IMG/VR virus record: IMGVR_UViG_3300025736_000014
Span: 5,708 to 69,707 of that record
Strand: one strand, 5' to 3'
DNA from: a virus
Length of the DNA: 64,000 nt
A program made the translations under genes and the position numbers. Positions 3,847 through 62,603 of the stretch are shown here, in pieces; the stretch's first letter is position 1, and every line of letters starts with the position of its first letter. The notes beneath the pieces are model-generated. The model was not told where the DNA came from. It saw nothing but the letters and a program-made list of their open reading frames with translations, and did no database searches.

Positions 3847-6549
3847 TTATTTTACCTCTTTTATCCTTTGGGCGTTTACTCTTATCCAATCTATCAAGCC
3901 AGGATTTTCATCCTTACCTGGTTGGCTGTAGTAATCCAAAAGAGCCTTTCCTGTTAACGCTCGAGATTGAGCCATACGAGCAAAATTTAAGGCGTGGAAA
4001 TAGTGGTCAGTTCCTTGCCTGGTCTCAACCCAGAAAGCAGTTTCCTCACCAGTTCTTCTGTTTTTCTTCGTAACTCTCGTTAACGATCTTAACTGGTTAT
4101 AGAAACCTGGAACTGTTTCTATGTTCCTTGGCAGCTCTACCACCTTATTTTGTATATCACTTACAAGATAATCCAGACTGATCGTCCTGTCAAGTTTAAC
4201 CTCATATTTTATATTGTCCCACCTAAAATATTCTTTGACAGTAAACTTGGATGACGGATAGGTTGCTGCAAATATCCTCCTGGGAAATTTCTCTATCAAT
4301 TCTTTTACTAACCCCTGTTCTGGCAATTTATCAACGACAGCAATTTTAATATCATAAGCTCCCATAACACTCTCAATGCTATTAGCTGGTCCGAAGAATT
4401 TGCTAACAATACCTGCCCAAACTACACGATATCCTTCGCCTTTTATTTTCTGGACAACAACAACGTTATGGACTTTACTACCAATATCAATACCAGCGAA
4501 ACAAGACTTTTTGGATTCAATAGGAATCTCATACTCTTTTTTACATGCGTTTAACTCAGAAATTTGGACAACCTGTCCTGAAACCTCGTAAGGAAGCCCA
4601 AGGTCTTGATTATAAAACTGCTGTAAAGCAGAAAAACCTATAAGTTTTGCACTCCGATATTTCTTAACAATATCAGCAATAGTTACTGATGGATTATACA
4701 TCCCATTAACTCTATATCCATGAACATCACTAGATGGGTTTTGAGCTTCCCATCTACCATCAACAATTCTTTTCATCTTCTTTTTACACTGACGGCAAAC
4801 ACAAGTTTTATTTTTATAATTAATATTCTTAAAGAAATCTAACTCTTGCCATAATCCACAATTCTTACACTTAATCTGCCATACTCTTTGATCGCTATCT
4901 AAATAGGCTTGGTGAATAGCATGCTTTGGTAGAGTAGGAGTAGAAATTTCACGTCTCCACTTTAGATCAGAAGCGTTCATACGCTTATCAATAAAAGGAA
5001 CATTCCTTTCGTCAAACCTATCTCGTTCATCTAAGAAAACACAATCAGCATCAACAGAAATAATCTGTTTCTCGTTTGTGCTACCACGAAAATAAATATC
5101 TCCTTTGCCTATCTTTTTTAAACCCAACGTCTCGACTCTTTTTCCCTGAACAGACTCAACCCGATCTTTTAAGTAGTCAGACATGTTAAGAACTGGATTA
5201 AGACGAGCTTGGACAAACTCTTGTAACTGCTTCTGGGCGGGGAATGTGTTACCAGTCCAATAAATTGATCCCTTTCTCCTAGCTAAAAATGTTCCGTTAT
5301 CTGTTCTTGGACACCAAACAATACCATCATAGTCAATATGCTTCCTATGTAACTTCCTTACAGATATATTATTAGATAGATATAATTGCATATTAGATGA
5401 TCCGTCTTTTCTTTTTACAATCCTTGTTGATATGCCAGCTAAAGAGCAAACCATAGTCCATATGTCAATTCTTTGCTTATTCTTCTGTGTAAAGGCTCTA
5501 ACTAGATTGCCTCTCTTTGTTTTTCTTCTCCACCCGTCTGCATCTAGTGATGTTTCTATAAATATATTCAATTGGTTTTTTGTTAAAGATAAAATAAATT
5601 CTATTGATGGAACTTTGTTTGGCATTACTAACCTTATTTTTCTTGCTACCTCTCCCTTAAACATAAGCTGAACACAATTAGAGTCGTTATTGGAAAGATG
5701 TTCTTTATAGCTAAGTTTGTTGAGTTTTAGACATCTTTTTATCTTCTGAACTTTATCATGATTAACTTTCTCTGATTGTGTTATACCTATTAAACTTGGT
5801 CCTATGCCTCGAATTCCTTTTCCCTGTGCTTTTGCAAAGTGTCCATCTGTCCAAACCCAAGCACATAATTCAACAAATTGATTTGAGTATGTTTTGTCCT
5901 TTGGTAAATCGGCACAAGAAACAGCACGAGGAATATATTTATCTCCAATAAACATATCTTTGGTTTGTGTAAAGTAAAAACCCTGCTTCTTATGTTTGTT
6001 GATCCACCCATCTTTTACTATCCATCTATGATTGTTAGTAACAAGTGCAGAAAACTTATTTGTCTCCAATAAAATAAGTTTAGTTTTAACCTTCTTGGTA
6101 AAAAGCTCTTTAGATTTTTTCCACTCACTCTTTCCAGTTATTTTATTCATAGTAAGTATAACTTCACCATCTCTTATCTGATTAAACCTTAACCACCCTC
6201 TTTTAGATAAAAGCTCTGTTTTTTCGTCTACGCAATAGAGTACATTCTTCCCTAGAATATCAGCAATCCACACAGCCTCAGAAATACCACGCTCAGACAA
6301 TCCCATCTGTGATGCCTTGGTATACACAATATTGTGATACTGGTCAGTATAGATTTGTACTAAATATTTCCTGTCGGAGAATTTAAGAGGTTTCCCCTTT
6401 GAGGTAAGCCAAACTGCTTTTACCCAAGTGAAATAATCAGACAACTTCTCCTTCTTGAACTTCTGCTGTGCCTTTATTAGCAGTTGCTTCTCCAGCACGG
6501 CTAGCTCTTTCTCGTTTAACTTCTGCAAGGAGCTTGAGAACGCCTTCAT
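3847..6549 (-). CDS. terL: terminase large subunit, GpA-like, intein-containing
   Basis: KASQMGLSE Walker A variant, VFLDERD Walker B, ISTPT coupling motif, CxxC..CxxC, C-terminal nuclease (GIDIG, DHYFHA). Confidence 0.9.
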   Translation of the reverse strand: MKAFSSSLQKLNEKELAVLEKQLLIKAQQKFKKEKLSDYFTWVKAVWLTSKGKPLKFSDRKYLVQIYTDQYHNIVYTKASQMGLSERGISEAVWIADILGKNVLYCVDEKTELLSKRGWLRFNQIRDGEVILTMNKITGKSEWKKSKELFTKKVKTKLILLETNKFSALVTNNHRWIVKDGWINKHKKQGFYFTQTKDMFIGDKYIPRAVSCADLPKDKTYSNQFVELCAWVWTDGHFAKAQGKGIRGIGPSLIGITQSEKVNHDKVQKIKRCLKLNKLSYKEHLSNNDSNCVQLMFKGEVARKIRLVMPNKVPSIEFILSLTKNQLNIFIETSLDADGWRRKTKRGNLVRAFTQKNKQRIDIWTMVCSLAGISTRIVKRKDGSSNMQLYLSNNISVRKLHRKHIDYDGIVWCPRTDNGTFLARRKGSIYWTGNTFPAQKQLQEFVQARLNPVLNMSDYLKDRVESVQGKRVETLGLKKIGKGDIYFRGSTNEKQIISVDADCVFLDERDRFDERNVPFIDKRMNASDLKWRREISTPTLPKHAIHQAYLDSDQRVWQIKCKNCGLWQELDFFKNINYKNKTCVCRQCKKKMKRIVDGRWEAQNPSSDVHGYRVNGMYNPSVTIADIVKKYRSAKLIGFSALQQFYNQDLGLPYEVSGQVVQISELNACKKEYEIPIESKKSCFAGIDIGSKVHNVVVVQKIKGEGYRVVWAGIVSKFFGPANSIESVMGAYDIKIAVVDKLPEQGLVKELIEKFPRRIFAATYPSSKFTVKEYFRWDNIKYEVKLDRTISLDYLVSDIQNKVVELPRNIETVPGFYNQLRSLTRVTKKNRRTGEETAFWVETRQGTDHYFHALNFARMAQSRALTGKALLDYYSQPGKDENPGLIDWIRVNAQRIKEVK
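5248..6234 (-). mobile_element. intein (329 aa) with LAGLIDADG homing endonuclease in TerL
   Basis: starts CVDEKTELL, TxxH block B (TNNH), two LAGLIDADG-like helices (AWVWTDG, TSLDADG), ends WTGN followed by Thr; exteins rejoin as NVLY/TFP. Confidence 0.92.
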
Positions 6550-35480: not shown

Positions 35481-35555
35481 TCAGGATGACTGGATTTGAA
35501 CCAGTGATCTCATCGTCCCAAACGACGCGCGTTGGCCAGACTACGCTACACCCTG
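35481..35555 (-). tRNA. tRNA-Pro(UGG)
   Basis: cloverleaf, loop TTTGGGA. Confidence 0.9.
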
Positions 35556-35582
35556 TTTTAGCTATTACTGTTGTTGTCTTTG

Positions 35583-35655
35583 CAAGAACGGTAAGAATCG
35601 AACTTACCCACGGGGATTTGGAGTCCCCATCGCCAGCCTTGGAACATTCGCTCTT
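35583..35655 (-). tRNA. tRNA-Trp(CCA)
   Basis: cloverleaf, loop CTCCAAA. Confidence 0.9.
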
Positions 35656-35661
35656 ATTTTG

Positions 35662-35743
35662 CGGAAGGTATAGGATTCGAACCTATGAACGGTTGCCCGT
35701 TACGGCTTAGCAAGCCGCTCCATTACCACTCTGGCAACCTTCC
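35662..35743 (-). tRNA. tRNA-Ser(GCU)
   Basis: long variable arm, loop TTGCTAA. Confidence 0.9.
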
Positions 35744-35889
35744 TAGTCAATGGCGGAAGTTTACATAAGTTACGATAGGTTTGACAGCTCATGTCTGGTT
35801 CCGCCGAGCGACTATAAGCTCTTAATTATATGCTACGCCCCAACCTATTGGGGTGTTTAAAGTAGCACATCTATCTTACTTTATTTTAG

Positions 35890-35963
35890 TACTCCTAGCA
35901 AGATTCGAACTTGCAACCTGCGGTTTCGAAGACCGACGCTCTTGTCCATTGAGCTATAGGAGC
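35890..35963 (-). tRNA. tRNA-Arg(UCG)
   Basis: loop CTTCGAA. Confidence 0.9.
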
Positions 35964-35967
35964 TTTG

Positions 35968-36040
35968 TGAGTCATATAGGTCTCGAACCTACGACAACCT
36001 CGTTAAGAGCGAGGTGCTCTACCAACTGAGCTAATGACCC
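35968..36040 (-). tRNA. tRNA-Lys(CUU)
   Basis: loop CTCTTAA. Confidence 0.92.
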
Positions 36041-36046
36041 ATTCTG

Positions 36047-36121
36047 TGAGTGCAGAGGGACTTGAACCCCCGACATTCTGCTTAAAAGGCAGACGCTCTT
36101 GACCAACTGAGCTATGCACCC
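36047..36121 (-). tRNA. tRNA-Lys(UUU)
   Basis: loop CTTTTAA. Confidence 0.92.
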
Positions 36122-36125
36122 GTTA

Positions 36126-36394
36126 TCAGAAAGTAATAAGCCAGATTCTGTTTTATGATGACATCTGTCTATGCCTTCGAACTTTAGACCTTGGTGGAAC
36201 ATCCTCAAACGGTCAATTCGGAAGTTGCTGCGACGGAGATTGCTCGTTTCACCATGCGACCTTCTAGTAGAAGGCGGCGTGCTCGTCTCTGTAGCTCTAA
36301 TCAGCGGTTTTACCCGTCTTAGGATTTAACCTAAGCAGTCTGTTCCATGCAGTCTGGACTTTCCTCTTTTTCAAGCGTCATCTCGCTTTCTGAT
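36126..36394 (-). ncRNA. rnpB: RNase P RNA, compact bacterial type (~269 nt)
   Basis: GAGGAAAGTCC, GGTGAAACG and AAACAGAATCTGGCTTA conserved blocks; P1 TCAGAAAG/CTTTCTGA. Confidence 0.9.
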
Positions 36395-36396
36395 GT

Positions 36397-36468
36397 TACC
36401 AAGGTAGGTCTCGAACCTACAATCTTGTGGCTCAGAACCACACGTGTTGCCGATTACACTACTTGGCA
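36397..36468 (-). tRNA. tRNA-Gln(CUG)
   Basis: loop TTCTGAG. Confidence 0.9.
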
Positions 36469-36469
36469 G

Positions 36470-36541
36470 TGCCTCCACAAAGAATCGAACTTTGATCCGC
36501 GACTTAGAAGGTCGCAATTCTGTCCGTTGAACTACAGAGGC
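36470..36541 (-). tRNA. tRNA-Arg(UCU)
   Basis: loop CTTCTAA. Confidence 0.9.
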
Positions 36542-36545
36542 TTTG

Positions 36546-36618
36546 TACTCTCGATAGGAATCGAACCTATGTATGCCTGATTAGGAATCAGGTGCGTTGT
36601 CCCCTACGCTACGAGAGT
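36546..36618 (-). tRNA. tRNA-Arg(CCU)
   Basis: loop TTCCTAA. Confidence 0.9.
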
Positions 36619-36624
36619 ATTTTG

Positions 36625-36696
36625 TTGGGGAGATAGGATTCGAACCTATAACCTACTCTGTATAAGAGAGTTGCTCAGCCATTGAGCTAATCCCCA
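36625..36696 (-). tRNA. tRNA-Ile(UAU)
   Basis: stem ACTCT/AGAGT, loop CTTATAC. Confidence 0.85.
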
Positions 36697-36700
36697 ATTG

Positions 36701-36775
36701 TAGGCGATGAGGGATTTGAACCCCCGACGAACGGTATGTAACACCGCCACTCTGACCAGGCTGAGTTAATCGCCT
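36701..36775 (-). tRNA. tRNA-Val(UAC)
   Basis: loop GTTACAT. Confidence 0.88.
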
Positions 36776-36779
36776 ATTG

Positions 36780-37095
36780 TGGACTTGGTGGTATTGAAAC
36801 CACGTCCAGACTATTAATTTAACATCATCTACATGTTTAGTATCCTAATGGATGCGTAAGGTATATGACACCCTCATCAGCGTTTTTGATTTTAAGCTCA
36901 AATAGCAAAAGCGTAGTTTGCGTTGGTTGGTGAAAAAAACATGCCCACAAACGAAACGATTGTTTCTTTCACGTCCTCTTTAAGTTGGGCGAGGAAACCC
37001 CTAATTGTTTTTGCAATTATGTCTTTGGACCTTTAACGATGTGTCAATCGACATGCAGATATTAAACTTGTAATCTGTCGAAACTATACAAGCCC
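36780..37095 (-). ncRNA. ssrA: tmRNA with a 38-codon tag
   Basis: 5' GGGCTTGTATAGTTTCGAC, 3' T-arm plus CAAGTCC-A acceptor with G3.U70; ATAATT-GCA resume context; tag ORF 37014-36898. Confidence 0.9.
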
Positions 37096-37198
37096 ATATG
37101 CGGCTATAAACCATATCTTACGACTTAGATTTACGCCGTTAATTCCCCTCTTGAAACCCTTACGAGTGAACAGACGCTCTTTCGAGGTAGGGACTGTG

Positions 37199-37270
37199 TA
37201 GATGAGATTGGATTCGAACCAATGATCTCCTCTGTATCAGAGAGGTACCTTACCGCTTGGCTACTCATCT
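37199..37270 (-). tRNA. tRNA-Ile(GAU)
   Basis: loop CTGATAC. Confidence 0.9.
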
Positions 37271-37305
37271 GTAGCTGAGTATAACACGGATGTAATACTT
37301 CAGCA

Positions 37306-37382
37306 TGGTGCTACTTGAAAGATTCGAACTTTCACTACTCGGGTTTTGAATCCGATCCCTCTACCAGTTGGGGTAAAGTAGC
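37306..37382 (-). tRNA. tRNA-Leu(CAA), short variable loop, CCA encoded
   Basis: loop TTCAAAA, 5-nt variable region. Confidence 0.85.
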
Positions 37383-37435
37383 AAACGGGGCACGTTCGGG
37401 ATTCTTCGGAGTTCCTCAGATTCCCCATGCCCGTG

Positions 37436-37509
37436 TGCTTCAAATAGGATTCGAACCTATACTGTGTCGGTTTTAAGCCGATTACCTCTACCAGTTGGGT
37501 TACTGAAGC
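37436..37509 (-). tRNA. tRNA-Leu(UAA), short variable loop
   Basis: loop CTTAAAA, 5-nt variable region. Confidence 0.85.
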
Positions 37510-37588
37510 ATAGTAGCCTGTCTCCCAGCTTGTAGGCTACAAACCTACGCGTGGTTTCAAGAGTAAAAACTCTTTCAGACTACTTGTG

Positions 37589-37670
37589 TGCCAAATATAG
37601 GATTCGAACCTACATACCTTACGGCACGAGTTTCTAAAACTCGCGTGTATACCTATTCCACCAATTTGGC
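37589..37670 (-). tRNA. tRNA-Leu(UAG)
   Basis: loop TTTAGAA, long variable arm. Confidence 0.9.
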
Positions 37671-37671
37671 T

Positions 37672-37748
37672 TGGTGACGATAATGGGGATCGAACCCATA
37701 GTCTCTGCCTTGAAAGGGAAGTGTGTTGGCCATTTACACTATATCGCC
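37672..37748 (-). tRNA. tRNA-Glu(UUC), CCA encoded
   Basis: loop CTTTCAA. Confidence 0.88.
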
Positions 37749-37754
37749 TTTTAG

Positions 37755-37825
37755 TAGCCCTGTAGGGAATCGAACCCTAGCCTGATGTCTGAGAAACATC
37801 TGTCCTGCCTCTAGACGACAGGGCC
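37755..37825 (-). tRNA. tRNA-Glu(CUC)
   Basis: loop TTCTCAG. Confidence 0.88.
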
Positions 37826-37826
37826 G

Positions 37827-37898
37827 TAGCGGAATCTGAGAATCGCACTCAGTTAAGACAGGTTATGAGCCTATCGAGATACTTACCTCCCACCCGCT
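37827..37898 (-). tRNA. tRNA-Met(CAU), probably initiator-like, atypical T-loop
   Basis: loop CTCATAA; purine11-pyrimidine24-type D stem; T-loop TGCGATT. Confidence 0.75.
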
Positions 37899-37907
37899 AT
37901 ATTTAAC

Positions 37908-37918
37908 TGTCAAAGAAC
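37908..37918 (-). promoter_or_regulatory. internal boxA-like antitermination site
   Basis: minus GTTCTTTGACA in a tRNA spacer. Confidence 0.55.
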
Positions 37919-37927
37919 TTAAACGGG

Positions 37928-38012
37928 CGGAAGATGTAGGAGTTGAACCTACAAGACCTTGCGGTCGCTGTTTTCAAAACAGAGGCGGTGCCAATTACGC
38001 GTGTAATCTTCC
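37928..38012 (-). tRNA. tRNA-Ser(UGA)
   Basis: loop TTTGAAA, long variable arm. Confidence 0.9.
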
Positions 38013-38017
38013 ATGTG

Positions 38018-38101
38018 TGCTGATTCTAGGTAATGCTCCTAGGTTGGCGATTAGGCTACGGGTTTACAGTCCGCTCTCCCTCTTTAGAAGACTACATCAG
38101 C
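38018..38101 (-). tRNA. tRNA-Tyr(GUA), non-canonical T-loop
   Basis: loop CTGTAAA; T-arm CTAGG-AGCATTA-CCTAG. Confidence 0.7.
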
Positions 38102-38107
38102 TTTTTG

Positions 38108-38179
38108 TTACGGAACTAGGATTTGAACCTAGAATCTGAGGGGTCAAAGTCCTCCGTGTTGCCGTTACACTATTCCGTA
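38108..38179 (-). tRNA. tRNA-Gln(UUG)
   Basis: loop CTTTGAC. Confidence 0.9.
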
Positions 38180-38184
38180 GTTTG

Positions 38185-38257
38185 TGCAAAGGATTGGAAT
38201 CGAACCAATATCTGATGTTTTTCAGACATCCGTCGTGACCAACTTGACTACCTTTAC
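38185..38257 (-). tRNA. tRNA-Phe(GAA)
   Basis: loop CTGAAAA. Confidence 0.9.
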
Positions 38258-38262
38258 ATGTG

Positions 38263-38334
38263 AGACCTGTACTGGGATCGCACCAGTGCATAACCGTTTT
38301 GCAAACAGCTGCGTTTCTCCTTCGCCAACAGGTC
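38263..38334 (-). tRNA. tRNA-Cys(GCA)
   Basis: loop TTGCAAA, U73, T-loop TGCGATC. Confidence 0.85.
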
Positions 38335-38417
38335 ATGGGGGAAGTAAAATACAATATATGTCATCTCACTTCCCAAGATCAATCCAGTAAGGCTTTAAAA
38401 CCGAACCAGTTGATTTG

Positions 38418-38491
38418 TGGACAAGATGGGAATCGAACCCATCACAGTTTGCTTGCAAAGCAATCTCGCCAGCCTTGGTACATGCTCGCCC
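38418..38491 (-). tRNA. tRNA-Ala(UGC)
   Basis: loop TTTGCAA, G3.U70. Confidence 0.9.
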
Positions 38492-38499
38492 AATTTGTG

Positions 38500-38568
38500 T
38501 TGCGATAGTGGGAGTCGAACCTACTTGCAACTGATTATGATTCAGTGCCTCTACCCAAGATTATCGCA
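38500..38568 (-). tRNA. tRNA-Met(CAU), elongator-like, reduced D-arm (69 nt)
   Basis: stem ACTGA/TCAGT, loop ATCATAA. Confidence 0.65.
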
Positions 38569-38573
38569 GTTTG

Positions 38574-38647
38574 CGGCTTGTACGGGATTTGAACCCGTGA
38601 TTTCTACCTTGACAGGGTAGTGTCATACCAGACTAGACTAACAAACC
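38574..38647 (-). tRNA. tRNA-Asp(GUC)
   Basis: loop CTGTCAA, G73. Confidence 0.9.
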
Positions 38648-38653
38648 ATTCTG

Positions 38654-38724
38654 CACTCACGCTAGGATTCGAACCTAAATCTTCTCCTTAACAGGGAGTC
38701 GTTCTGCCGTTGAACTACACGAGT
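38654..38724 (-). tRNA. tRNA-Asn(GUU)
   Basis: loop CTGTTAA. Confidence 0.9.
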
Positions 38725-38725
38725 A

Positions 38726-38801
38726 TGGAGCTATATGTTGGACTCGAACCAACCACCTTCTGATTACAAAACAGATGCTCTACCAGATGAGCTAATACAG
38801 C
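38726..38801 (-). tRNA. tRNA-Thr(UGU), CCA encoded
   Basis: loop TTTGTAA. Confidence 0.92.
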
Positions 38802-38802
38802 T

Positions 38803-38814
38803 TGGAGCAAGATA
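38803..38814 (-). repeat. duplicated 3' end of tRNA-Gly, downstream of the HNH gene
   Basis: GAGCAAGATA at 38805-38814 and 39312-39321; this copy carries the CCA. Confidence 0.75.
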
Positions 38815-38815
38815 C

Positions 38816-39277
38816 TTATTCTTTCCAAGATTCTTGCCTTAACATAGTACCGATTGTACTATATGCTAATTTATATTTCTTTGCTAATCCCCTATGAGTC
38901 AAACTATAATCTTTAGAATAATCTTCTCTAATTTTTCTTACTAATTTCCAAGTTAGTTTGTGACATCCTTGCTTTTCTCCAGTTGCTCTATTACTTCTAT
39001 TTGGCAATCTATGTCTTTTTTTCGACATAGCATCGGCAGTATTTTCTTTCATGCTACCGAGAAACAAGTGTTTCGGATTAACACAAAGTCTATTATCACA
39101 CTTATGACAGACAACTTTATTTTTAGGAATTTTTCCAAAGTGTAAATTCCAACTTAATCTATGAGAGTCAACAGTTTTACCATCTACCTTTATACAGCCA
39201 TATCCAGTACCTCTATTGGCACCAGTCCATAACCAACAGGATTTAGTTTTATTAACTTTACTCCAAAATCTATCCAT
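38816..39277 (-). CDS. free-standing HNH homing endonuclease
   Basis: FWSKV..CWLWTG..GYG..HRLSW..VCHKCDN..CVNPKHL. Confidence 0.92.
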
Positions 39278-39312
39278 AAATAAAATAAATTATTTTATAA
39301 AAGTTAAATATG

Positions 39313-39383
39313 AGCAAGATAGGAGAATCGAACTCCTGTCAACTGATTGGAAATCAGTAGTTAAGCCACTTAACTAATCTTGC
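39313..39383 (-). tRNA. tRNA-Gly(UCC)
   Basis: loop TTTCCAA, U73. Confidence 0.9.
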
Positions 39384-39460
39384 TGGGGTAGTCGATGGGA
39401 TTCGAACCCATGTGGGTCACTTCACAGGCAACCTTCTGAGACCTCTCGAATACGACCACC
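39384..39460 (-). tRNA. tRNA-His(GUG), G-1 and CCA encoded
   Basis: loop CTGTGAA, G-1:C73. Confidence 0.9.
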
Positions 39461-43430: not shown

Positions 43431-43697
43431 TTAATGTTCTTGTTCATAGATTGCTTGTCTTAGATAAACTACTAAATCTAAAGCCTCTTCGTAGGCGTCC
43501 TGTAAAACGTTTCTACCATTATGGGGCTGTAATCTGACACCATATCTCTCCAGGCCGAATTTATCTCTCTTATTCATATCCAAAATAACTAGATCCCAGA
43601 CTGCGGGTAGTTTGTTTTTCTTTGGTCTAGGCTGTTTCTTATTCATATAGTAATTTAAACATTGGTTCTTTCCAAGCACGTTCTTCTTTGTATCCAC
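43431..43697 (-). CDS. all-alpha NTP pyrophosphatase-like phage protein
   Basis: G-x2-RYG..L..HNGR..DAYEEALDLVVYL. Confidence 0.5.
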   Translation of the reverse strand: MDTKKNVLGKNQCLNYYMNKKQPRPKKNKLPAVWDLVILDMNKRDKFGLERYGVRLQPHNGRNVLQDAYEEALDLVVYLRQAIYEQEH

Positions 43698-43947
43698 AAT
43701 GAGAGCAGGTGTAGTCGACTAGATATGACACTTCTATCCTAATTTTACTTGGAACTGGGCACGATGAATAAAGATTTTCATAAGTTATTGGCAATAGGTT
43801 CTCTATTTTTTTATCTATGCTCGGGGTGATGTGGGCAATAACATGAGATTTACAGCTACGGCATTGAAGGGTACAAATACCGCGTGTTCTTCTCTTAAGC
43901 CGATCTTCGGCACTAAGAGGATCGTAAGCTGAGGAAGTAATCGCCAT
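43639..43947 (-). CDS. Zn-ribbon hypothetical protein
   Basis: CRSC..CSHCG. Confidence 0.5.
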   Translation of the reverse strand: MAITSSAYDPLSAEDRLKRRTRGICTLQCRSCKSHVIAHITPSIDKKIENLLPITYENLYSSCPVPSKIRIEVSYLVDYTCSHCGYKEERAWKEPMFKLLYE

Positions 43948-43974
43948 ATATAGATTATATCATAAATAACTCAG

Positions 43975-44067
43975 TAGCTGGGGCAAGGACTTGAACCTTA
44001 CAAAGAGCCCGTAATATCAGGAATCGGGCAACACCTGAACATTCTGCGATTCGTTCGCCTCCCAGCT
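43975..44067 (-). ncRNA. tRNA-like RNA with a pseudoknot replacing the anticodon arm
   Basis: acceptor AGCTGGG/CCCAGCT, D-like GCGA/TCGC, T-arm with TTCAAGT loop; TCAGG/CCTGA and GCCCG/CGGGC interleaved. Confidence 0.6.
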
Positions 44068-44099
44068 ATTCAGTTATCAAAGAGTAGCTTATTATAGCA

Positions 44100-45300
44100 T
44101 ATGTGTCGACAGATTTCTATCGCCATTTACCTTTCTATTTTTTTTAATTACCGTCTTTTGTAGTAAAGACTATAGGGTATTTGTCATTGATTTTAGGGCA
44201 GGCCTAACGGAAGTAGCTAGTTTACGATTAGTAGACATAGTCTCCTGGATTGCTCCATTGCTTCCAGAGTAGAAAACCCCGTTCCCATTATATATAGCAT
44301 TACATTAGGGAAAGTGTCGACAGATGGGTATATGAAGTACAGTTTAAGCAATAACGATGTACGGTACCCACTATAGGCTATCCACAATAGATTTTCTGAC
44401 TAGGGGGCCTATAGTGTTCCACATGAGAGAAGAAAACGCATAACTACTCTGTTAAAATTCCGTTTGATATAATCTTTTCTATACTATGAGTTGTCCTATA
44501 GTAGAGTGATGATACTACTAATCAAGAGATAGTCCTATAACAATACACTAGAAGATATACGCTATATAATTCCATTCATCTATCTACTAACTACTAACAC
44601 TGTAGTATTTACTATGGGGAAATCATCTATGTAGTACTAGAATCCTATAACATAAACTATACAGTCTAGTTCTAACTATAACTATTACTATAAGTTATGT
44701 CCTGTAGTATCACACTATAGTCTTAGATCCATAGAGAAATGACTTATAGTGTTGACTATACTGCCTGTTAAGTGCGTTTATAATAAACACTATTGGATAA
44801 CTTATAATGTAGTACTATATCATCATCTTTTGTCCTATAGTAATGTGATCATCTGTATAGTCCTATAGTATGATGTAAGATGATATAAGATACACTATAG
44901 TAACTACTATCGGACACGAAACTGTTACTTCTAAGACACGCTGTTTTTCATATCGCATAAATCATCATCAATAATAATAAAATGCGTTAGAATTGAACAG
45001 GACAAGTCTTTTAATATCTTTAATCTGTTATCTAAGTATATATAGTCGAAATAGTAAAAATTCCAACAGACCTCGAAACTGATACTATAGGATTCTGATG
45101 ACTTTCTTCTCTGTTATATTGCTACTTGACAATTTTGTATAATAGTTTATCGTTAAGTTACTGATGATATTAGTATAAGTAATTTTTCATCGTCTCAGAT
45201 ACAGAAAAGAGATCACACTTTAACAAACAGATCAGACAACAACAGACTTGATACATCTGATGATCTTAAAATCTGATAGTCTTATCTAAGTAGTCAAGAG
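44100..45300. other. divergent non-coding switch region with iterated (G)TCCTATAGTA-like motifs
   Basis: no ORF in track; GTCCTATAGTA at 44493, 44832, 44860 (and 46392); variants at 44532, 44642, 44699. Confidence 0.6.
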
Positions 45301-45313
45301 AATTGAGATACTT

Positions 45314-45652
45314 ATGATAGATAAAATAGAACGATTTATTTATTTAACTGTATTGTTTTTGTTTTACTCAATGTTATTATTTAACATATCGAGAAGTTAT
45401 GAAAGAAAAGACTTCGAGTTTACTGTTGAGAATTGCTTGATAAAAACATCAGACAATCAATTGCAAGTGTTAAAAAAATACGATTGTTACGAATATTTTT
45501 ACTCACTTGCTTATGATCTTAATTATGCGATCAATGAAGACATAAGTTTCCAATCTGTTAAAAAATGTTTAACTTATGTTAACAATAACAGATACGAAAT
45601 AGTCGCAACTGACGCTTGTTTAGATTATTTTTACAATCTTGAAAACTACTAA
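45314..45652 (+). CDS. hypothetical protein with N-terminal TM segment, no Gly/Pro/Trp
   Basis: 112 aa; first rightward gene; in the GG/CC-free block. Confidence 0.6.
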   Translation: MIDKIERFIYLTVLFLFYSMLLFNISRSYERKDFEFTVENCLIKTSDNQLQVLKKYDCYEYFYSLAYDLNYAINEDISFQSVKKCLTYVNNNRYEIVATDACLDYFYNLENY

Positions 45653-45738
45653 CTTACTAATTATTTATACTTGACTGCTTAACTAAGACTATCAGAACTG
45701 ACTGACTGCTTTATATAGTCAAGTGAAAAGAGATTTTT

Positions 45739-45957
45739 ATGACTAACTTATATAAAAAGATGTTAACAAAAAAACAAAGAAAAGTTTTTTCTTCTGTTTT
45801 ATCACTTGATTATTTTAACGATCTGCTAGTTTTTCTTCGTGATGATGATAAACTTAACGCTGACAGTTGTTTCGATTGTGTTGCTTATCATAAGTTATCA
45901 CAACTTGATGATAACTTTTTAACAGAGTTAAACAACTTAAGACAAAAATATCAATAA
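45739..45957 (+). CDS. hypothetical protein, no Gly/Pro/Trp
   Basis: 72 aa; AGTGAAAAGAG leader. Confidence 0.65.
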   Translation: MTNLYKKMLTKKQRKVFSSVLSLDYFNDLLVFLRDDDKLNADSCFDCVAYHKLSQLDDNFLTELNNLRQKYQ

Positions 45958-46041
45958 AAAAATAAATCTTGACTATATAACGAAGTCAGTCAGAAAACGC
46001 TTGACTAACACAATCAGTCAACAGAGTGAAAAGAGATATTT

Positions 46042-46344
46042 ATGAGTAATACAATTAAAAATTACAATAAAATCGCTGTTGAACTGAGAAAACTAGAACA
46101 ATTGCGACAACAACTCAGAGAACAGAAGAAAAAACTTGTTAACTCTGAAGATTATAAGTCAGTTAAAAGACAAGAAGACAATAAGAAAAAGAAGTATTGG
46201 AATAAGGCCCATAATACTTCTGCAAAATTGTTTCGAGATATGTCTGTCGATACTGTCAATAAGATTAAGAACATAGTCTCTAACGATCAAAAGACTATGA
46301 TTGATGTTATCGTTTCTAACTTGAAACAGTATCAAGGCCGATAA
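46042..46344 (+). CDS. coiled-coil hypothetical protein
   Basis: 100 aa; same AGTGAAAAGAG leader. Confidence 0.65.
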   Translation: MSNTIKNYNKIAVELRKLEQLRQQLREQKKKLVNSEDYKSVKRQEDNKKKKYWNKAHNTSAKLFRDMSVDTVNKIKNIVSNDQKTMIDVIVSNLKQYQGR

Positions 46345-46640
46345 TTATAAATTATAAGTTAAAATCTTTGTTGATTGATTAAGTTAGTCAAGTCCTATAG
46401 TAAAAAACTCAATTTCCAAGAGTGATATTATGAAAAAATCAAACACGAAAATTCCACGAAAGATTTTCAGTGTTTTTTTTCAAAACTATTCCATGCGAAA
46501 ACAAGAGCATACAAAAACCAGATGTATAGCAAATCCATGAGTATGAGCTACCCACCTAGAAATTTGTGATTTTGCTCAGGGAGCGAGAACCTTCTTGAGC
46601 TAAATTCCAAATTATCAATTAAATCCATAAACGGTGAATT

Positions 46641-54420: not shown

Positions 54421-54819
54421 ATGATTGAAGTAAAAAAAGCTGAGGATGCCATTAAGTTGGCTAAGCATAAAATAAGAAGTTGGGATAAAGAACATCTTAT
54501 TGGTCTATATCTCGATTCAAAAAACAACCTCAAACATTCTGAGTTAATTAGTATGGGCTTATTAGATAGCACACTGTTAGCACCCAGAGAAATACTACAG
54601 CCAGCAATCCTGTATAGCTCGGCTGGTTTTGTGTTGTTACATAATCACCCAAGTGGTGATGTTAAACCATCTAAAGAGGACATAGCAGAAACTTTAAGAA
54701 TAGAAAAAGCCTCTAAGATCATGGGAATTTTGTTTATCGACCATATTATATTCTCTAAGGGTAAAATTTATTACTCTATGAGGGCAAATAAAAAGATGAA
54801 GGGAGGTGAAAAGCTATGA
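54421..54819 (+). CDS. radC: RadC-like JAB domain protein
   Basis: KEH..YLD, PREI, HNHPSGD..PSKED, DHII. Confidence 0.9.
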   Translation: MIEVKKAEDAIKLAKHKIRSWDKEHLIGLYLDSKNNLKHSELISMGLLDSTLLAPREILQPAILYSSAGFVLLHNHPSGDVKPSKEDIAETLRIEKASKIMGILFIDHIIFSKGKIYYSMRANKKMKGGEKL

Positions 54820-62093: not shown

Positions 62094-62603
62094 ATGGATA
62101 AATCAAAGAAAGTAAGGGAGTTTTTGAGAGAGAGTAATGCTATTGAGGGAGTTTTTGATGAGGATAGTTTAAAACAAGCGGAGATTGCTTGGAAGTATTT
62201 AGAAGAACAGAAGGAATTAGACATCCAAGTTATTTTGAGAACCCATAGAATCCTTATGCTTAACCAGCGAATTAGAGGATTTGAAAGGGGATATTTTAGG
62301 AAACGACCTGTTTTTATAGGTGGTAAAGAAGCCTTACATTATTCAGAAATCAGGGGTGCGATTAAAAGTTGGCTCAAGGATGTTGAAACCTCAATTGAAA
62401 TGCCTGGTAAGAACGGCAAACATATTCAACTAGACCATATTACTTTTGAGAAGATTCACCCGTTTATTGATGGCAATGGCAGAATCGGTAGGATATTTAT
62501 GAACTGGCAAAGGAAGAAAGCGGGATTGCCAATACTCGTTATTAAAGAAGCAGAAAAACAAAAGTATTATGATTGGTTTACTAACACCCTAAAGGGAGAT
62601 TAA
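62094..62603 (+). CDS. Fic domain protein
   Basis: HPFIDGNGRIGR; SNAIEG. Confidence 0.92.
   Translation: MDKSKKVREFLRESNAIEGVFDEDSLKQAEIAWKYLEEQKELDIQVILRTHRILMLNQRIRGFERGYFRKRPVFIGGKEALHYSEIRGAIKSWLKDVETSIEMPGKNGKHIQLDHITFEKIHPFIDGNGRIGRIFMNWQRKKAGLPILVIKEAEKQKYYDWFTNTLKGD

Follow-up and report, generated by a model that had tools for sequence, protein, structure and literature searches.

What would lead a phage to give up two dinucleotides, GG and CC, over a kilobase of its DNA while keeping them in the rest of its genome? The question is raised by a block in the window (the whole 64-kb stretch of DNA analysed here, part of a 76,726-nt virus record recovered from salt-lake metagenomes). 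A first-pass annotation had described the block as containing no GG and a single CC (at 45550), and had guessed roughly that 30–40 such steps would be expected by chance. Both the extent of the block and its single exception were reproduced by counting:

45092–46198, no strand: GG/CC desert, 0 GG and 1 CC in 1107 nt, with weaker depletion on to 46393

The depleted tract as a whole extends over about 1.1–1.3 kb. From the base composition of the desert one expects 22.3 GG and 19.8 CC (about 42 together), and in 20,000 shuffles of the same sequence the number of GG/CC steps had a mean of 41.8 (sd 5.7) and never fell below 21. The Poisson probability of finding one or none is about 3e-17.

A GG/CC-free tract peculiar to one block

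The two GG/CC-free gaps in the desert (460 and 649 nt) are the longest of the whole 76,726-nt record, in which the longest gap outside the block is only 122 nt, so that similar runs of about 1 kb, which the first-pass annotation had allowed might be common elsewhere at this GC content, do not recur. Although the desert is poorer in G and C than the genome (27.6% as against 36% GC), deviation among the 16 dinucleotides in it is limited to GG and CC: the other steps made of G and C are close to their expected numbers (CG 19 observed, 21 expected; GC 15 observed, 21 expected) and no gapped dinucleotide or trinucleotide approaches the same depletion. Over the whole record GG/CC stands at 1.16× expectation, and the word missing from the block is thus present elsewhere. 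As a further measure we calculated, for each of the ten strand-symmetric dinucleotide classes, the number of copies expected within its longest gap. The maximum of this statistic in five phage records, GG/CC tracts excepted, was about 12, and in the control (T5, 1–30 kb) it was 9. The shuffles, the ten-class comparison across these records and the T5 segment rule out chance and base composition. Misassembly was likewise ruled out: ORF1, the first gene of the block, was found in 24 independent contigs, and the ten aligned places (from JGI, ENA and Logan) match the stretch, nine of them letter-for-letter. GATC, which is avoided genome-wide (0.56), is retained in the block, with six copies against 2.8 expected from its genome density, and the block thus cannot be regarded as free of sites in general.

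Control region and three helix-enclosed genes

The left edge of the desert is sharp and coincides with an operator-like site and a putative promoter, beyond which the desert spans the first rightward transcription unit. The control elements are as follows.

44169–44914, no strand: operator-like or iteron-like array of sites with a CTATAG core, in a divergent non-coding control region
45083–45092, minus strand: left bracket, an exact copy of TCCTATAGTA whose GG (45090–91) is the last GG/CC before the desert
45126–45153, plus strand: sigma-70-like promoter (TTGACA, 16 nt, TATCGT; 10/12 matches)
46393–46402, plus strand: right bracket, an exact copy of TCCTATAGTA, inverted relative to the copy at 45083–45092

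Three further exact copies of the 10-mer TCCTATAGTA lie within the array (at 44494, 44833 and 44861), bringing the total to five in 1.9 kb; the rest of the window has no copy (about 0.1 expected by chance). The whole block is flanked by an inverted pair of these operator-like sites. A genome-wide T7-type promoter was ruled out as the function of the CTATAG-containing motif, as its exact copies are confined to the 2-kb control region. The promoter was called by consensus match only, in a scan that overall gave no more sites than shuffled sequence, and is presumed to be the start of an immediate-early transcript. In the assembly graph a unitig covering 43667–45197 was 1.6-fold deeper, with a recurrent branch at about 45168–45197; the presumed variant branching at this point was not recovered.

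Downstream of the putative promoter the block consists of three small orphan genes, each lying within its own inverted repeat of about 27 nt.

45272–45298, plus strand: helix 1, 5′ arm, pairing with 45670–45696 (27 nt, 89% complementary)
45314–45652, plus strand: ORF1, 112 aa, Tyr-rich with a hydrophobic N-terminal segment, without Gly, Pro or Trp
45670–45696, plus strand: helix 1, 3′ arm, pairing with 45272–45298
45698–45723, plus strand: helix 2, 5′ arm, pairing with 45968–45993 (26 nt, 92%, 24/26)
45739–45957, plus strand: ORF2, 72 aa, rich in Asp, Leu and Lys, without Gly, Pro or Trp
45968–45993, plus strand: helix 2, 3′ arm, pairing with 45698–45723
46000–46026, plus strand: helix 3, 5′ arm, pairing with 46366–46392 (27 nt)
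46042–46344, plus strand: ORF3, 100 aa, basic, predicted all-helical (AF2 pLDDT 85)
46204–46215, plus strand: first copy of the 12-mer AAGGCCSATAAT, containing GGCC and kept in the related phages L074 and L075
46334–46345, plus strand: second copy of AAGGCCSATAAT, at the ORF3 stop codon
46366–46392, plus strand: helix 3, 3′ arm, pairing with 46000–46026

The three pairs of arms (26–27 nt, 85–92% complementary) form helices in both the minimum-energy and the centroid fold, and comparable inverted repeats did not arise in any of 150 dinucleotide shuffles. Comparison of helix 3 with its counterpart in L075 revealed four compensatory and two one-sided changes, with 25 of the 27 positions paired in both. 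These predicted RNA helices are long, conserved and placed at cistron boundaries, as stems of the RNase III type are, and by analogy they are probably processing or stabilising stems; none of the RNA sequencing runs contains this sequence. The single CC of the desert lies within ORF1 in the context TTCCAAT. The desert is ended within ORF3 by a Trp codon (46198–46200) and the first copy of AAGGCCSATAAT, of which the window holds just two copies, and the first breaks past the block were found as the first-pass annotation had listed them (TGG at 46199, GGCC at 46206 and 46336).

No match to ORF1–3 was found in PHROGs, Pfam or the ESM Atlas, and the AF2 model of ORF3 had no fold match in the PDB or BFVD. 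Homologues of ORF1 and ORF2 were looked for and none was found. Searches of the phage database with blastn, an exact-match scan of metagenome contigs and single-protein scans of viral contigs gave nothing, and motif scans of viral contigs gave chance-level matches only. A minor variant in which most of ORF1 is deleted was also observed.

Level and lineage of the purge

As the translations of ORF1 and ORF2 do lack Gly, Pro and Trp, as had been read from the sequence at the outset, the absence of GG and CC might be a consequence of protein composition. A pure amino-acid effect was ruled out, as the non-coding parts of the desert contain no GG/CC against 17 expected and the codon junctions contain one against 9.3 expected (P = 5e-4, codon-order shuffling). 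The constraint therefore operates at the nucleotide level. Its cost is evident in the codons for Gly, Pro and Trp and in the canonical Shine–Dalgarno sequence, all of which have been given up: the ribosome-binding sites of ORF1 and ORF2 are of a GG-less GAAAAGAG type, whereas genes downstream use AAAGGAGGTGAAA, a difference that the first-pass annotation had picked out for the second and third genes. ORF2 and ORF3 share the leader AGTGAAAAGAGATTTTTATG. GG and CC are depleted equally on one strand, so that the purge is strand-symmetric and points to a reader acting on the duplex, or to one that reads both strands.

The purge is restricted to this lineage. The sister phages L074 and L075 are without ORF1 and ORF2 (cassettes 1 and 2), the interval being 457 nt in these phages and 1204 nt here, and homology with both resumes exactly at the 5′ arm of helix 3 (46000). 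No desert is present at the corresponding place in either. The homologues of ORF3 in relatives (71, 44 and 34% identity) carry GG/CC at the expected rate and contain Pro, Trp and some Gly, showing that the desert is a lineage-specific state and not a conserved property of the gene; as the close relatives are not purged, any GG/CC reader would also be specific to this lineage. ORF3 of this phage has six GG/CC against 14.7 expected, all six of them in DNA segments conserved with L074. It has no private GG/CC sites, whereas L074 has six, and at three of these the two phages differ only synonymously (L074/this phage: CGC-C/AGA-C, GAG-G/GAA-G and ACC-G/ACT-G). On these alignments the purge has a direction in this lineage. 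A deaminase signature was not seen at the six sites differing from L074, where transitions and transversions are mixed.

The MoxR gene led to four related records, of which G003/L008 alone contains a comparable tract (375 nt, 20 GG/CC expected), situated mostly in the non-coding early control region. No tract in these records or in T5, however, matches the desert of this phage. The 439-nt GG/CC-free gap of L010 is very AT-rich iteron DNA (10.5 expected) and the 271-nt gap of G001 is within a repeat-protein gene.

Candidate readers and comparison with known systems

The best explanation we can offer, and a tentative one, is that targets have been removed to evade something that reads GG/CC on duplex DNA. 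The block would be the immediate-early operon of a lytic tailed phage of about 100 kb, in which transcription of three small-gene cassettes, each enclosed by its own predicted long-range RNA helix, would start from a host-type (sigma-70-like) promoter in the divergent control region. Selection in this lineage would have stripped the GG/CC steps from both strands of the operon, leaving an agent that reads GG/CC on duplex DNA unable to act on the DNA needed first, and this first-expressed DNA would presumably yield takeover or anti-defence proteins. The candidate reader is a CRISPR PAM: to our knowledge no other documented reader in prokaryotes is determined by the GG/CC dinucleotide alone. The PAM is NGG in the case of Cas9, while type I-F and some type I-B systems use CC. 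As there is no GG/CC on either strand, no protospacer would be possible in the GG/CC-free DNA of the operon. In published work, leading regions that lack the motif determine whether a phage escapes restriction (PMC12455610), some phages are depleted of the CC PAM (PMC12174588) and spacers are concentrated on anti-CRISPR loci and early positions (bioRxiv 10.64898/2026.10.15.759504). The phage itself is visibly shaped by DNA-targeting defences: over the genome CCGG is lost (0 against 44 expected) and GCGC nearly so (5 against 57), and each relative avoids its own distinct set of 4-mers.

The first-pass annotation had likewise suggested a PAM-free or target-free early zone carrying anti-defence genes. 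This is the best available idea and is partly supported: the purge is indeed at the DNA level and strand-symmetric, and it covers the first rightward unit, but the annotation had counted free use of GG, Gly, Pro and Trp in homologues against its reading, and those of ORF3 do carry GG/CC, Pro and Trp, with some Gly. A PAM-free island would also leave the other ~75 kb of the record unprotected (GG/CC 1.16×), and the removal of a single PAM is a small gain. Total elimination, together with loss of the Shine–Dalgarno sequence, fits an agent acting at every site better than a spacer-dependent one. As regards entry of the DNA, the independent assemblies (contigs, not reads) terminate at different places, the assembly of the related G001 closes into a circle through a 127-nt k-mer overlap, and the only hint on termini is a TerL 26% identical to the terminases of Herelleviridae, phages with long fixed terminal repeats. 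For the one host-like gene searched, the match was no better than 50% and lay in a Verrucomicrobiia MAG contig.

An agent of the every-site kind would be an undescribed host or phage activity that hits each GG/CC step, such as a frequent-cutting nuclease or nickase, a CC-context deaminase or some other base modifier; the operon would escape as target-free, and protection of the remaining genome would follow later, perhaps through an inhibitor that the operon encodes. We regard this as unlikely and hold the same view of its extension to a wider class of dinucleotide-purged early cassettes in which the dinucleotide differs by lineage. Elimination is as total as that of CCGG genome-wide, the pattern to be expected if each single site is harmful, and selection was strong enough to override the Shine–Dalgarno sequence and three amino acids. 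Enzymes that read two or three bases exist (Nt.CviPII and M.CviPII at CCD, M.CviPI at GC), but we know of no bacterial activity of this kind with GG/CC specificity. A candidate gene was not found here, former GG/CC sites show no deaminase signature relative to L074, and an extra mechanism would be needed for the ~5,800 other GG/CC sites.

The remaining explanations are each improbable. The first-pass annotation had offered as its second idea that GG/CC contexts are modified by phage or host; in the form considered here the phage would mark its own DNA at GG/CC and leave the early operon unmarked for host RNA polymerase or to evade type IV restriction. The genome does encode three DNA methyltransferases (a pair of N6/N4 enzymes fused to ParB and a C5 enzyme), and its glycan-building locus of about 20 kb could in principle decorate DNA. 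However, CCGG is absent from the genome (0 against 44 expected) and GGCC is reduced threefold (27 against 83). The absence of CCGG and the reduction of GGCC indicate that sites containing CC/GG are exposed to restriction, which is hard to reconcile with CC/GG being protected. The only C5-methyltransferase found aligns best with M.HhaI, including the target-recognition loops, and so points to GCGC specificity. The parts scanned (74% of the genome) yielded no gene for a hydroxymethylase, a DpdA-type enzyme or any other base replacement. Self-marking is disfavoured on these grounds, and we give it little credence.

A constraint on the RNA seems to us equally doubtful. The early transcript would avoid GG (as in Shine–Dalgarno-like, CsrA-type or RegB-type GGA/GGAG sites) and CC, either to escape a ribonuclease or RNA-binding repressor or to keep the mRNA unstructured save for three designed helices. 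The desert does coincide with one transcription unit, the three gene-enclosing helices indicate that RNA structure is under selection here, and GG-directed cleavage of RNA has a precedent in T4 RegB, whose target is GGAG in early mRNAs. Against this, no known RNA reader demands equal removal of GG and CC, GC and CG steps are kept, and every later gene of this phage carries a strong GGAGG site. GG/CC is lacking, too, from the 68 nt preceding the likely transcription start (2.6 expected, alone not significant).

There is a similarly slim chance that the desert is a passive legacy, cassettes 1 and 2 and their promoter having been acquired from, or having originated in, DNA of another composition. 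The absence of ORF1 and ORF2 from L074 and L075 (457 as against 1204 nt), the GC content of the block (27.6% in a 36% genome), a GATC usage unlike the rest of the genome and the minor variant deleting most of ORF1 would all be in keeping with this, but it merely moves the question, as a 1-kb tract with one GG/CC observed and 42 expected needs a cause wherever it arose. Moreover cassettes 1 and 2 are built with leaders and arms of the same design as in the native cassette 3, and native ORF3, compared with its homologues, has been purged as well. Two further candidates were ruled out: an early-promoter hotspot for type III CRISPR, which has no PAM and so cannot account for a dinucleotide (PMC13575424), and Rho, which binds YC, as TC is at expectation in the desert.

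If target removal is indeed the explanation, its interest lies in the shortness of the word. Motif avoidance in phages concerns restriction sites of 4–8 bp, and PAMs mildly, whereas here a 1.1-kb operon is nearly free of GG/CC. That it was purged at the cost of three amino acids and a normal ribosome-binding site indicates that selection on a two-letter word can match the absoluteness seen for restriction sites, and such selection would be confined to the DNA expressed first. Should the reader be a CRISPR PAM, this would be the first clear PAM-free locus, in keeping with early and anti-CRISPR loci being preferred CRISPR targets; should it be something else, it would point to a new class of dinucleotide-specific defence or phage weapon. 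Packaging early phage genes one by one inside RNA helices, as predicted for the three cassettes, is unusual too.

Several known systems share part of this organization. Like an acr-aca operon the block has small genes, a promoter-like site and palindrome-like TCCTATAGTA sites, but no HTH domain was detected in ORF1–3 or in the seven neighbouring small proteins tested, and an HTH repressor of the Aca type was not found among them. Long double-stranded stems punctuate the polycistronic early mRNA of T7 and rRNA operons as they seem to do here, and the arms of the 16S and 23S rRNA stems flank the enclosed unit, as in the three cassettes; the T7 RNase III sites, in contrast, are local hairpins between genes, whereas the helices predicted here span a gene. 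As an analogy the RNase III stems would account for the inverted repeats and not for the GG/CC purge. Avoidance of short palindromic restriction sites is strong in this genome too (CCGG, GCGC and GGCC), but avoidance of palindromic 4-mers is unable to remove all GG/CC, and GATC is avoided genome-wide but not in the block.

Parallels are also found in the leading region of Autographiviridae and the FST DNA of T5, the latter annotated as the first to enter, where, as may be the case here, early DNA transcribed by the host polymerase carries small, variable orphan or anti-defence genes, although no homologues of Ocr, A1 or A2 are present in this phage. In leading regions the absence of a motif from that region alone decides escape even when the motif is present elsewhere (PMC12455610), and here too the absence is confined to the block. 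The missing word is, however, a restriction motif of 6–8 bp in leading regions and a bare dinucleotide here, and T5 has no dinucleotide desert. The depletion of type I-F PAMs in Pseudomonas aeruginosa phages (PMC12174588) involves the same CC/GG and the same logic of motif removal. The under-representation seen here is complete locally, in the block, and does not extend genome-wide: the published depletion is mild and spread over the genome, whereas in this phage it is total over about 1.1–1.3 kb, with the rest of the genome at an observed/expected ratio of 1.16.

The GG/CC-free tract

The 1107 nt at positions 45092-46198 of the window (27.6% GC), which cover the first rightward genes, are devoid of GG and hold just one CC, at 45550, against 22.3 GG and 19.8 CC expected from base composition, and thus the desert described in the first-pass annotation is confirmed; in 20,000 mononucleotide shuffles of the tract the mean GG/CC count was 41.8 and the minimum 21. 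GG and CC are the only deviating dinucleotides (CG 19 versus 21 expected, GC 15 versus 21), and no gapped dinucleotide or trinucleotide in the desert shows nearly comparable depletion. The adjacent pair of GG/CC-free gaps in the desert (460 and 649 nt) exceed all others in the full 76,726-nt virus record in length; the next longest outside the desert region is 122 nt. As a background statistic we determined the longest gap of every strand-symmetric dinucleotide class (ten in all) and the count expected within it. The two desert gaps correspond to 24.5 and 17.1 expected counts; in five phage records the value is at most about 12 for all classes, GG/CC tracts excepted, and in T5 (1-30 kb, first-step-transfer repeat included) it is never above 9 and there is no desert. 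ORF1 is present in 24 contigs from JGI, ENA and Logan assemblies, and an assembly artefact is excluded because the ten places aligned, among the matches listed, agree with the window. The left edge is sharp, with 53 GG/CC in the intergenic region 44120-45091 (52 expected), and the last GG to the left lies within an operator-like site. The sole CC and the first GG beyond the desert (46199) belong to one word on opposite strands (TTCCAAT / ATTGGAA), of which further TTCCAA copies occur at 45063 and 46416.

The constraint falls on the nucleotide sequence itself, in a strand-symmetric way. The three non-coding parts of the desert hold no GG/CC (17 expected) and the codon junctions one, against 9.3 expected from codon-order shuffling within ORFs (P = 5e-4). 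ORF1 and ORF2 lack Gly, Pro and Trp, as had been claimed, and all other GG/CC codons as well. The ribosome-binding sites, already noted as atypical, read GAAAAGAG, which matches the canonical AAAGGAGGTGAAA of downstream genes minus its GG. In all later genes GG/CC is at or over expectation.

Anatomy of the block

The record, about 74% complete by CheckV, comes from salt-lake metagenomes and belongs to a tailed phage with TerL, portal, a large glycan-building locus, MoxR/vWA and replication genes. Further annotated genes, at 62094-62603 and 54421-54819 and, on L072 (part of the same record), at L072:1995-3512 and 5143-5643, include those for a Fic/DOC protein, a RadC-like JAB protein, a LAGLIDADG-interrupted metallophosphatase and an ERF recombinase; a weak sigma-70 region-4 match lies at L072:4426-4929. 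In 35481-39460 Rfam finds, all on the minus strand, about 25 tRNAs, a class-A RNase P RNA just over the gathering score (36121-36394) and a tmRNA (36777-37095). Divergent transcription originates in a non-coding region some 1 kb long, where CTATAG-core sites form an array; the window's five exact copies of TCCTATAGTA all fall within 1.9 kb.

Features of the block
45083-45092 and 46393-46402, two inverted TCCTATAGTA copies bracketing the block
45126-45153, sigma-70-like promoter, consensus match only
45314-45652, ORF1
45739-45957, ORF2
46042-46344, ORF3
46000-46026 and 46366-46392, arms of helix 3, enclosing ORF3
46204-46215 and 46334-46345, AAGGCCSATAAT, present just twice in the window, both times within ORF3 and at a spacing of 130 nt

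ORF1, ORF2 and ORF3 are each flanked by their own 26-27-nt inverted repeat, which we read as three predicted RNA helices, each enclosing one cistron: the minimum-energy fold and the centroid fold each contain all three arm pairs, and not one of 150 dinucleotide-preserving shuffles gave even a single comparable repeat. Helix 3 is conserved in L075, a sister-phage contig, relative to which it carries four compensatory and two one-sided changes, with 25 of 27 positions paired in both. Like the stems that enclose rRNAs, these helices may serve in RNase III processing or stabilization.

In sequencing run X5 a minor variant (depth 3.5) skips 248 nt at 45407-45656, removing most of ORF1; the variant letters near the deletion (45350, 45353 and 45361) create no GG or CC. 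In three runs (X5, X8, X10) contigs or depth bins within non-coding 43667-45197 have about 1.5-2 times the depth found elsewhere (the X5 unitig has depth 52.9 against about 33 for unitigs on its right), and at least two runs show a branch in the assembly graph at about 45165-45197. These observations suggest a co-occurring variant with a common control region but a different early cassette, although searches for such a variant recovered none.

A purge in one lineage

No detectable homologues of ORF1 or ORF2 were found. Homologues of ORF3 have 71, 44 and 34% identity, the first carried by the syntenic sister-phage contigs L074 and L075. Homology of the window to these two ends at 44796 and restarts at 46000, precisely where the 5' arm of helix 3 lies; the interval is 457 nt in them against 1204 nt in the window, and they therefore lack promoter, leader and cassettes 1 and 2 (ORF1 and ORF2 with their repeats).

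GG/CC in ORF3 and its homologues (observed; expected)
Window: 6; 14.7
L074 / L075: 12; 12.8
L076: 14; 20.4
L077: 21; 22.5

The desert therefore does not characterize the gene family as a whole; homologues with free use of GG in relatives, which the first-pass annotation had named as telling against its reading, do occur for ORF3. All six window sites are common to L074 and fall in two conserved DNA segments, which include an invariant Trp codon and the two copies of the 12-mer AAGGCCSATAAT. L074 has six additional sites, three of them differing from the window only synonymously, and the window has no private site, so the purge of its lineage came after the divergence. Conserved elements requiring GG/CC define where the desert ends on the right. 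In L074 and L075 both AAGGCCSATAAT copies are preserved as DNA sequence, and the 12-mer may be a functional site obliged to keep GGCC. The sister early control region has two GGCCGGCC palindromes beside CTATAG-type sites (L075:1899-1906 and 2207-2214), with none at the corresponding place in the window.

Among distant relatives found through MoxR, a comparable tract occurs only in G003/L008 (375 nt, 20 expected, in a non-coding early control region). A 271-nt GG/CC-free tract (L046:9946-10216, equal to G001:C1:89946-90216; 14.7 expected) lies within an 809-aa protein with xxYVKADI-type repeats; protein repeats alone can therefore yield gaps of this size, not of the size of the window desert.

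Candidate readers of GG/CC

Target removal is the simplest reading, because the dinucleotide constraint is strand-symmetric, absolute and confined to the first transcription unit: a reader of GG/CC on duplex DNA would find no target there. We favour it tentatively, at somewhat short of an even chance, with a PAM as the most concrete candidate. To our knowledge the CRISPR PAM (NGG, or CC) is the only documented prokaryotic determinant of exactly dinucleotide size. Three reports give grounds to expect special pressure on early DNA: lack of the motif in the leading region suffices to determine escape from a type I restriction system (PMC12455610), CC PAMs are depleted in Pseudomonas aeruginosa phages (PMC12174588), and in Acr-carrying phages spacers are enriched on anti-CRISPR loci and earlier positions (bioRxiv 10.64898/2026.10.15.759504). 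The PAM itself as the reader is nevertheless doubtful, as a PAM-free island leaves the rest of the genome unprotected. Total elimination, moreover, is easier to reconcile with an agent that acts at each site than with one that depends on spacers, and this speaks for an undescribed agent directly reading GG/CC, a rival we consider unlikely.

The phage genome is heavily shaped by restriction.

Genome-wide word counts (observed; expected)
CCGG: 0; 44
GCGC: 5; 57
GGCC: 27; 83
CGCG: 14; 39
TGCA: 85; 186
GATC: 191; 344

The non-palindromic AATG/CATT is halved (355 versus 731), and the avoided set differs among related phage records (CCGG, CGCG and TCGA in G001; GGCC, 0 versus 43, in G004). GATC is not avoided in the block (6 versus 2.8 expected from genome density), so that the block is not free of restriction sites in general; what it lacks is GG/CC specifically.

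These counts also argue against the first-pass suggestion that GG/CC contexts are modified and the block must stay unmodified, since avoidance of CCGG and GGCC would be needless if CC/GG contexts were modified. The sole C5-methyltransferase found is M.HhaI-like (GCGC), recognition loops included, and no base-replacement genes were seen in the scanned parts of the roughly 74% complete record; we give this explanation little credence.

C5 cytosine methyltransferase
62740 onwards (G000:C1:68447-69967; L072:448-1968), 506 aa, nearest M.HhaI, carrying two inserts (about 85 and 107 residues)

GCGC is almost absent from the genome that carries this enzyme. An RNA-level constraint, or a passive legacy of imported cassettes, seems in each case improbable.

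In the literature searched we met no earlier account of a dinucleotide-free phage operon. We would place the block with the motif avoidance already known in early or leading phage DNA, here carried to a dinucleotide and to completeness.
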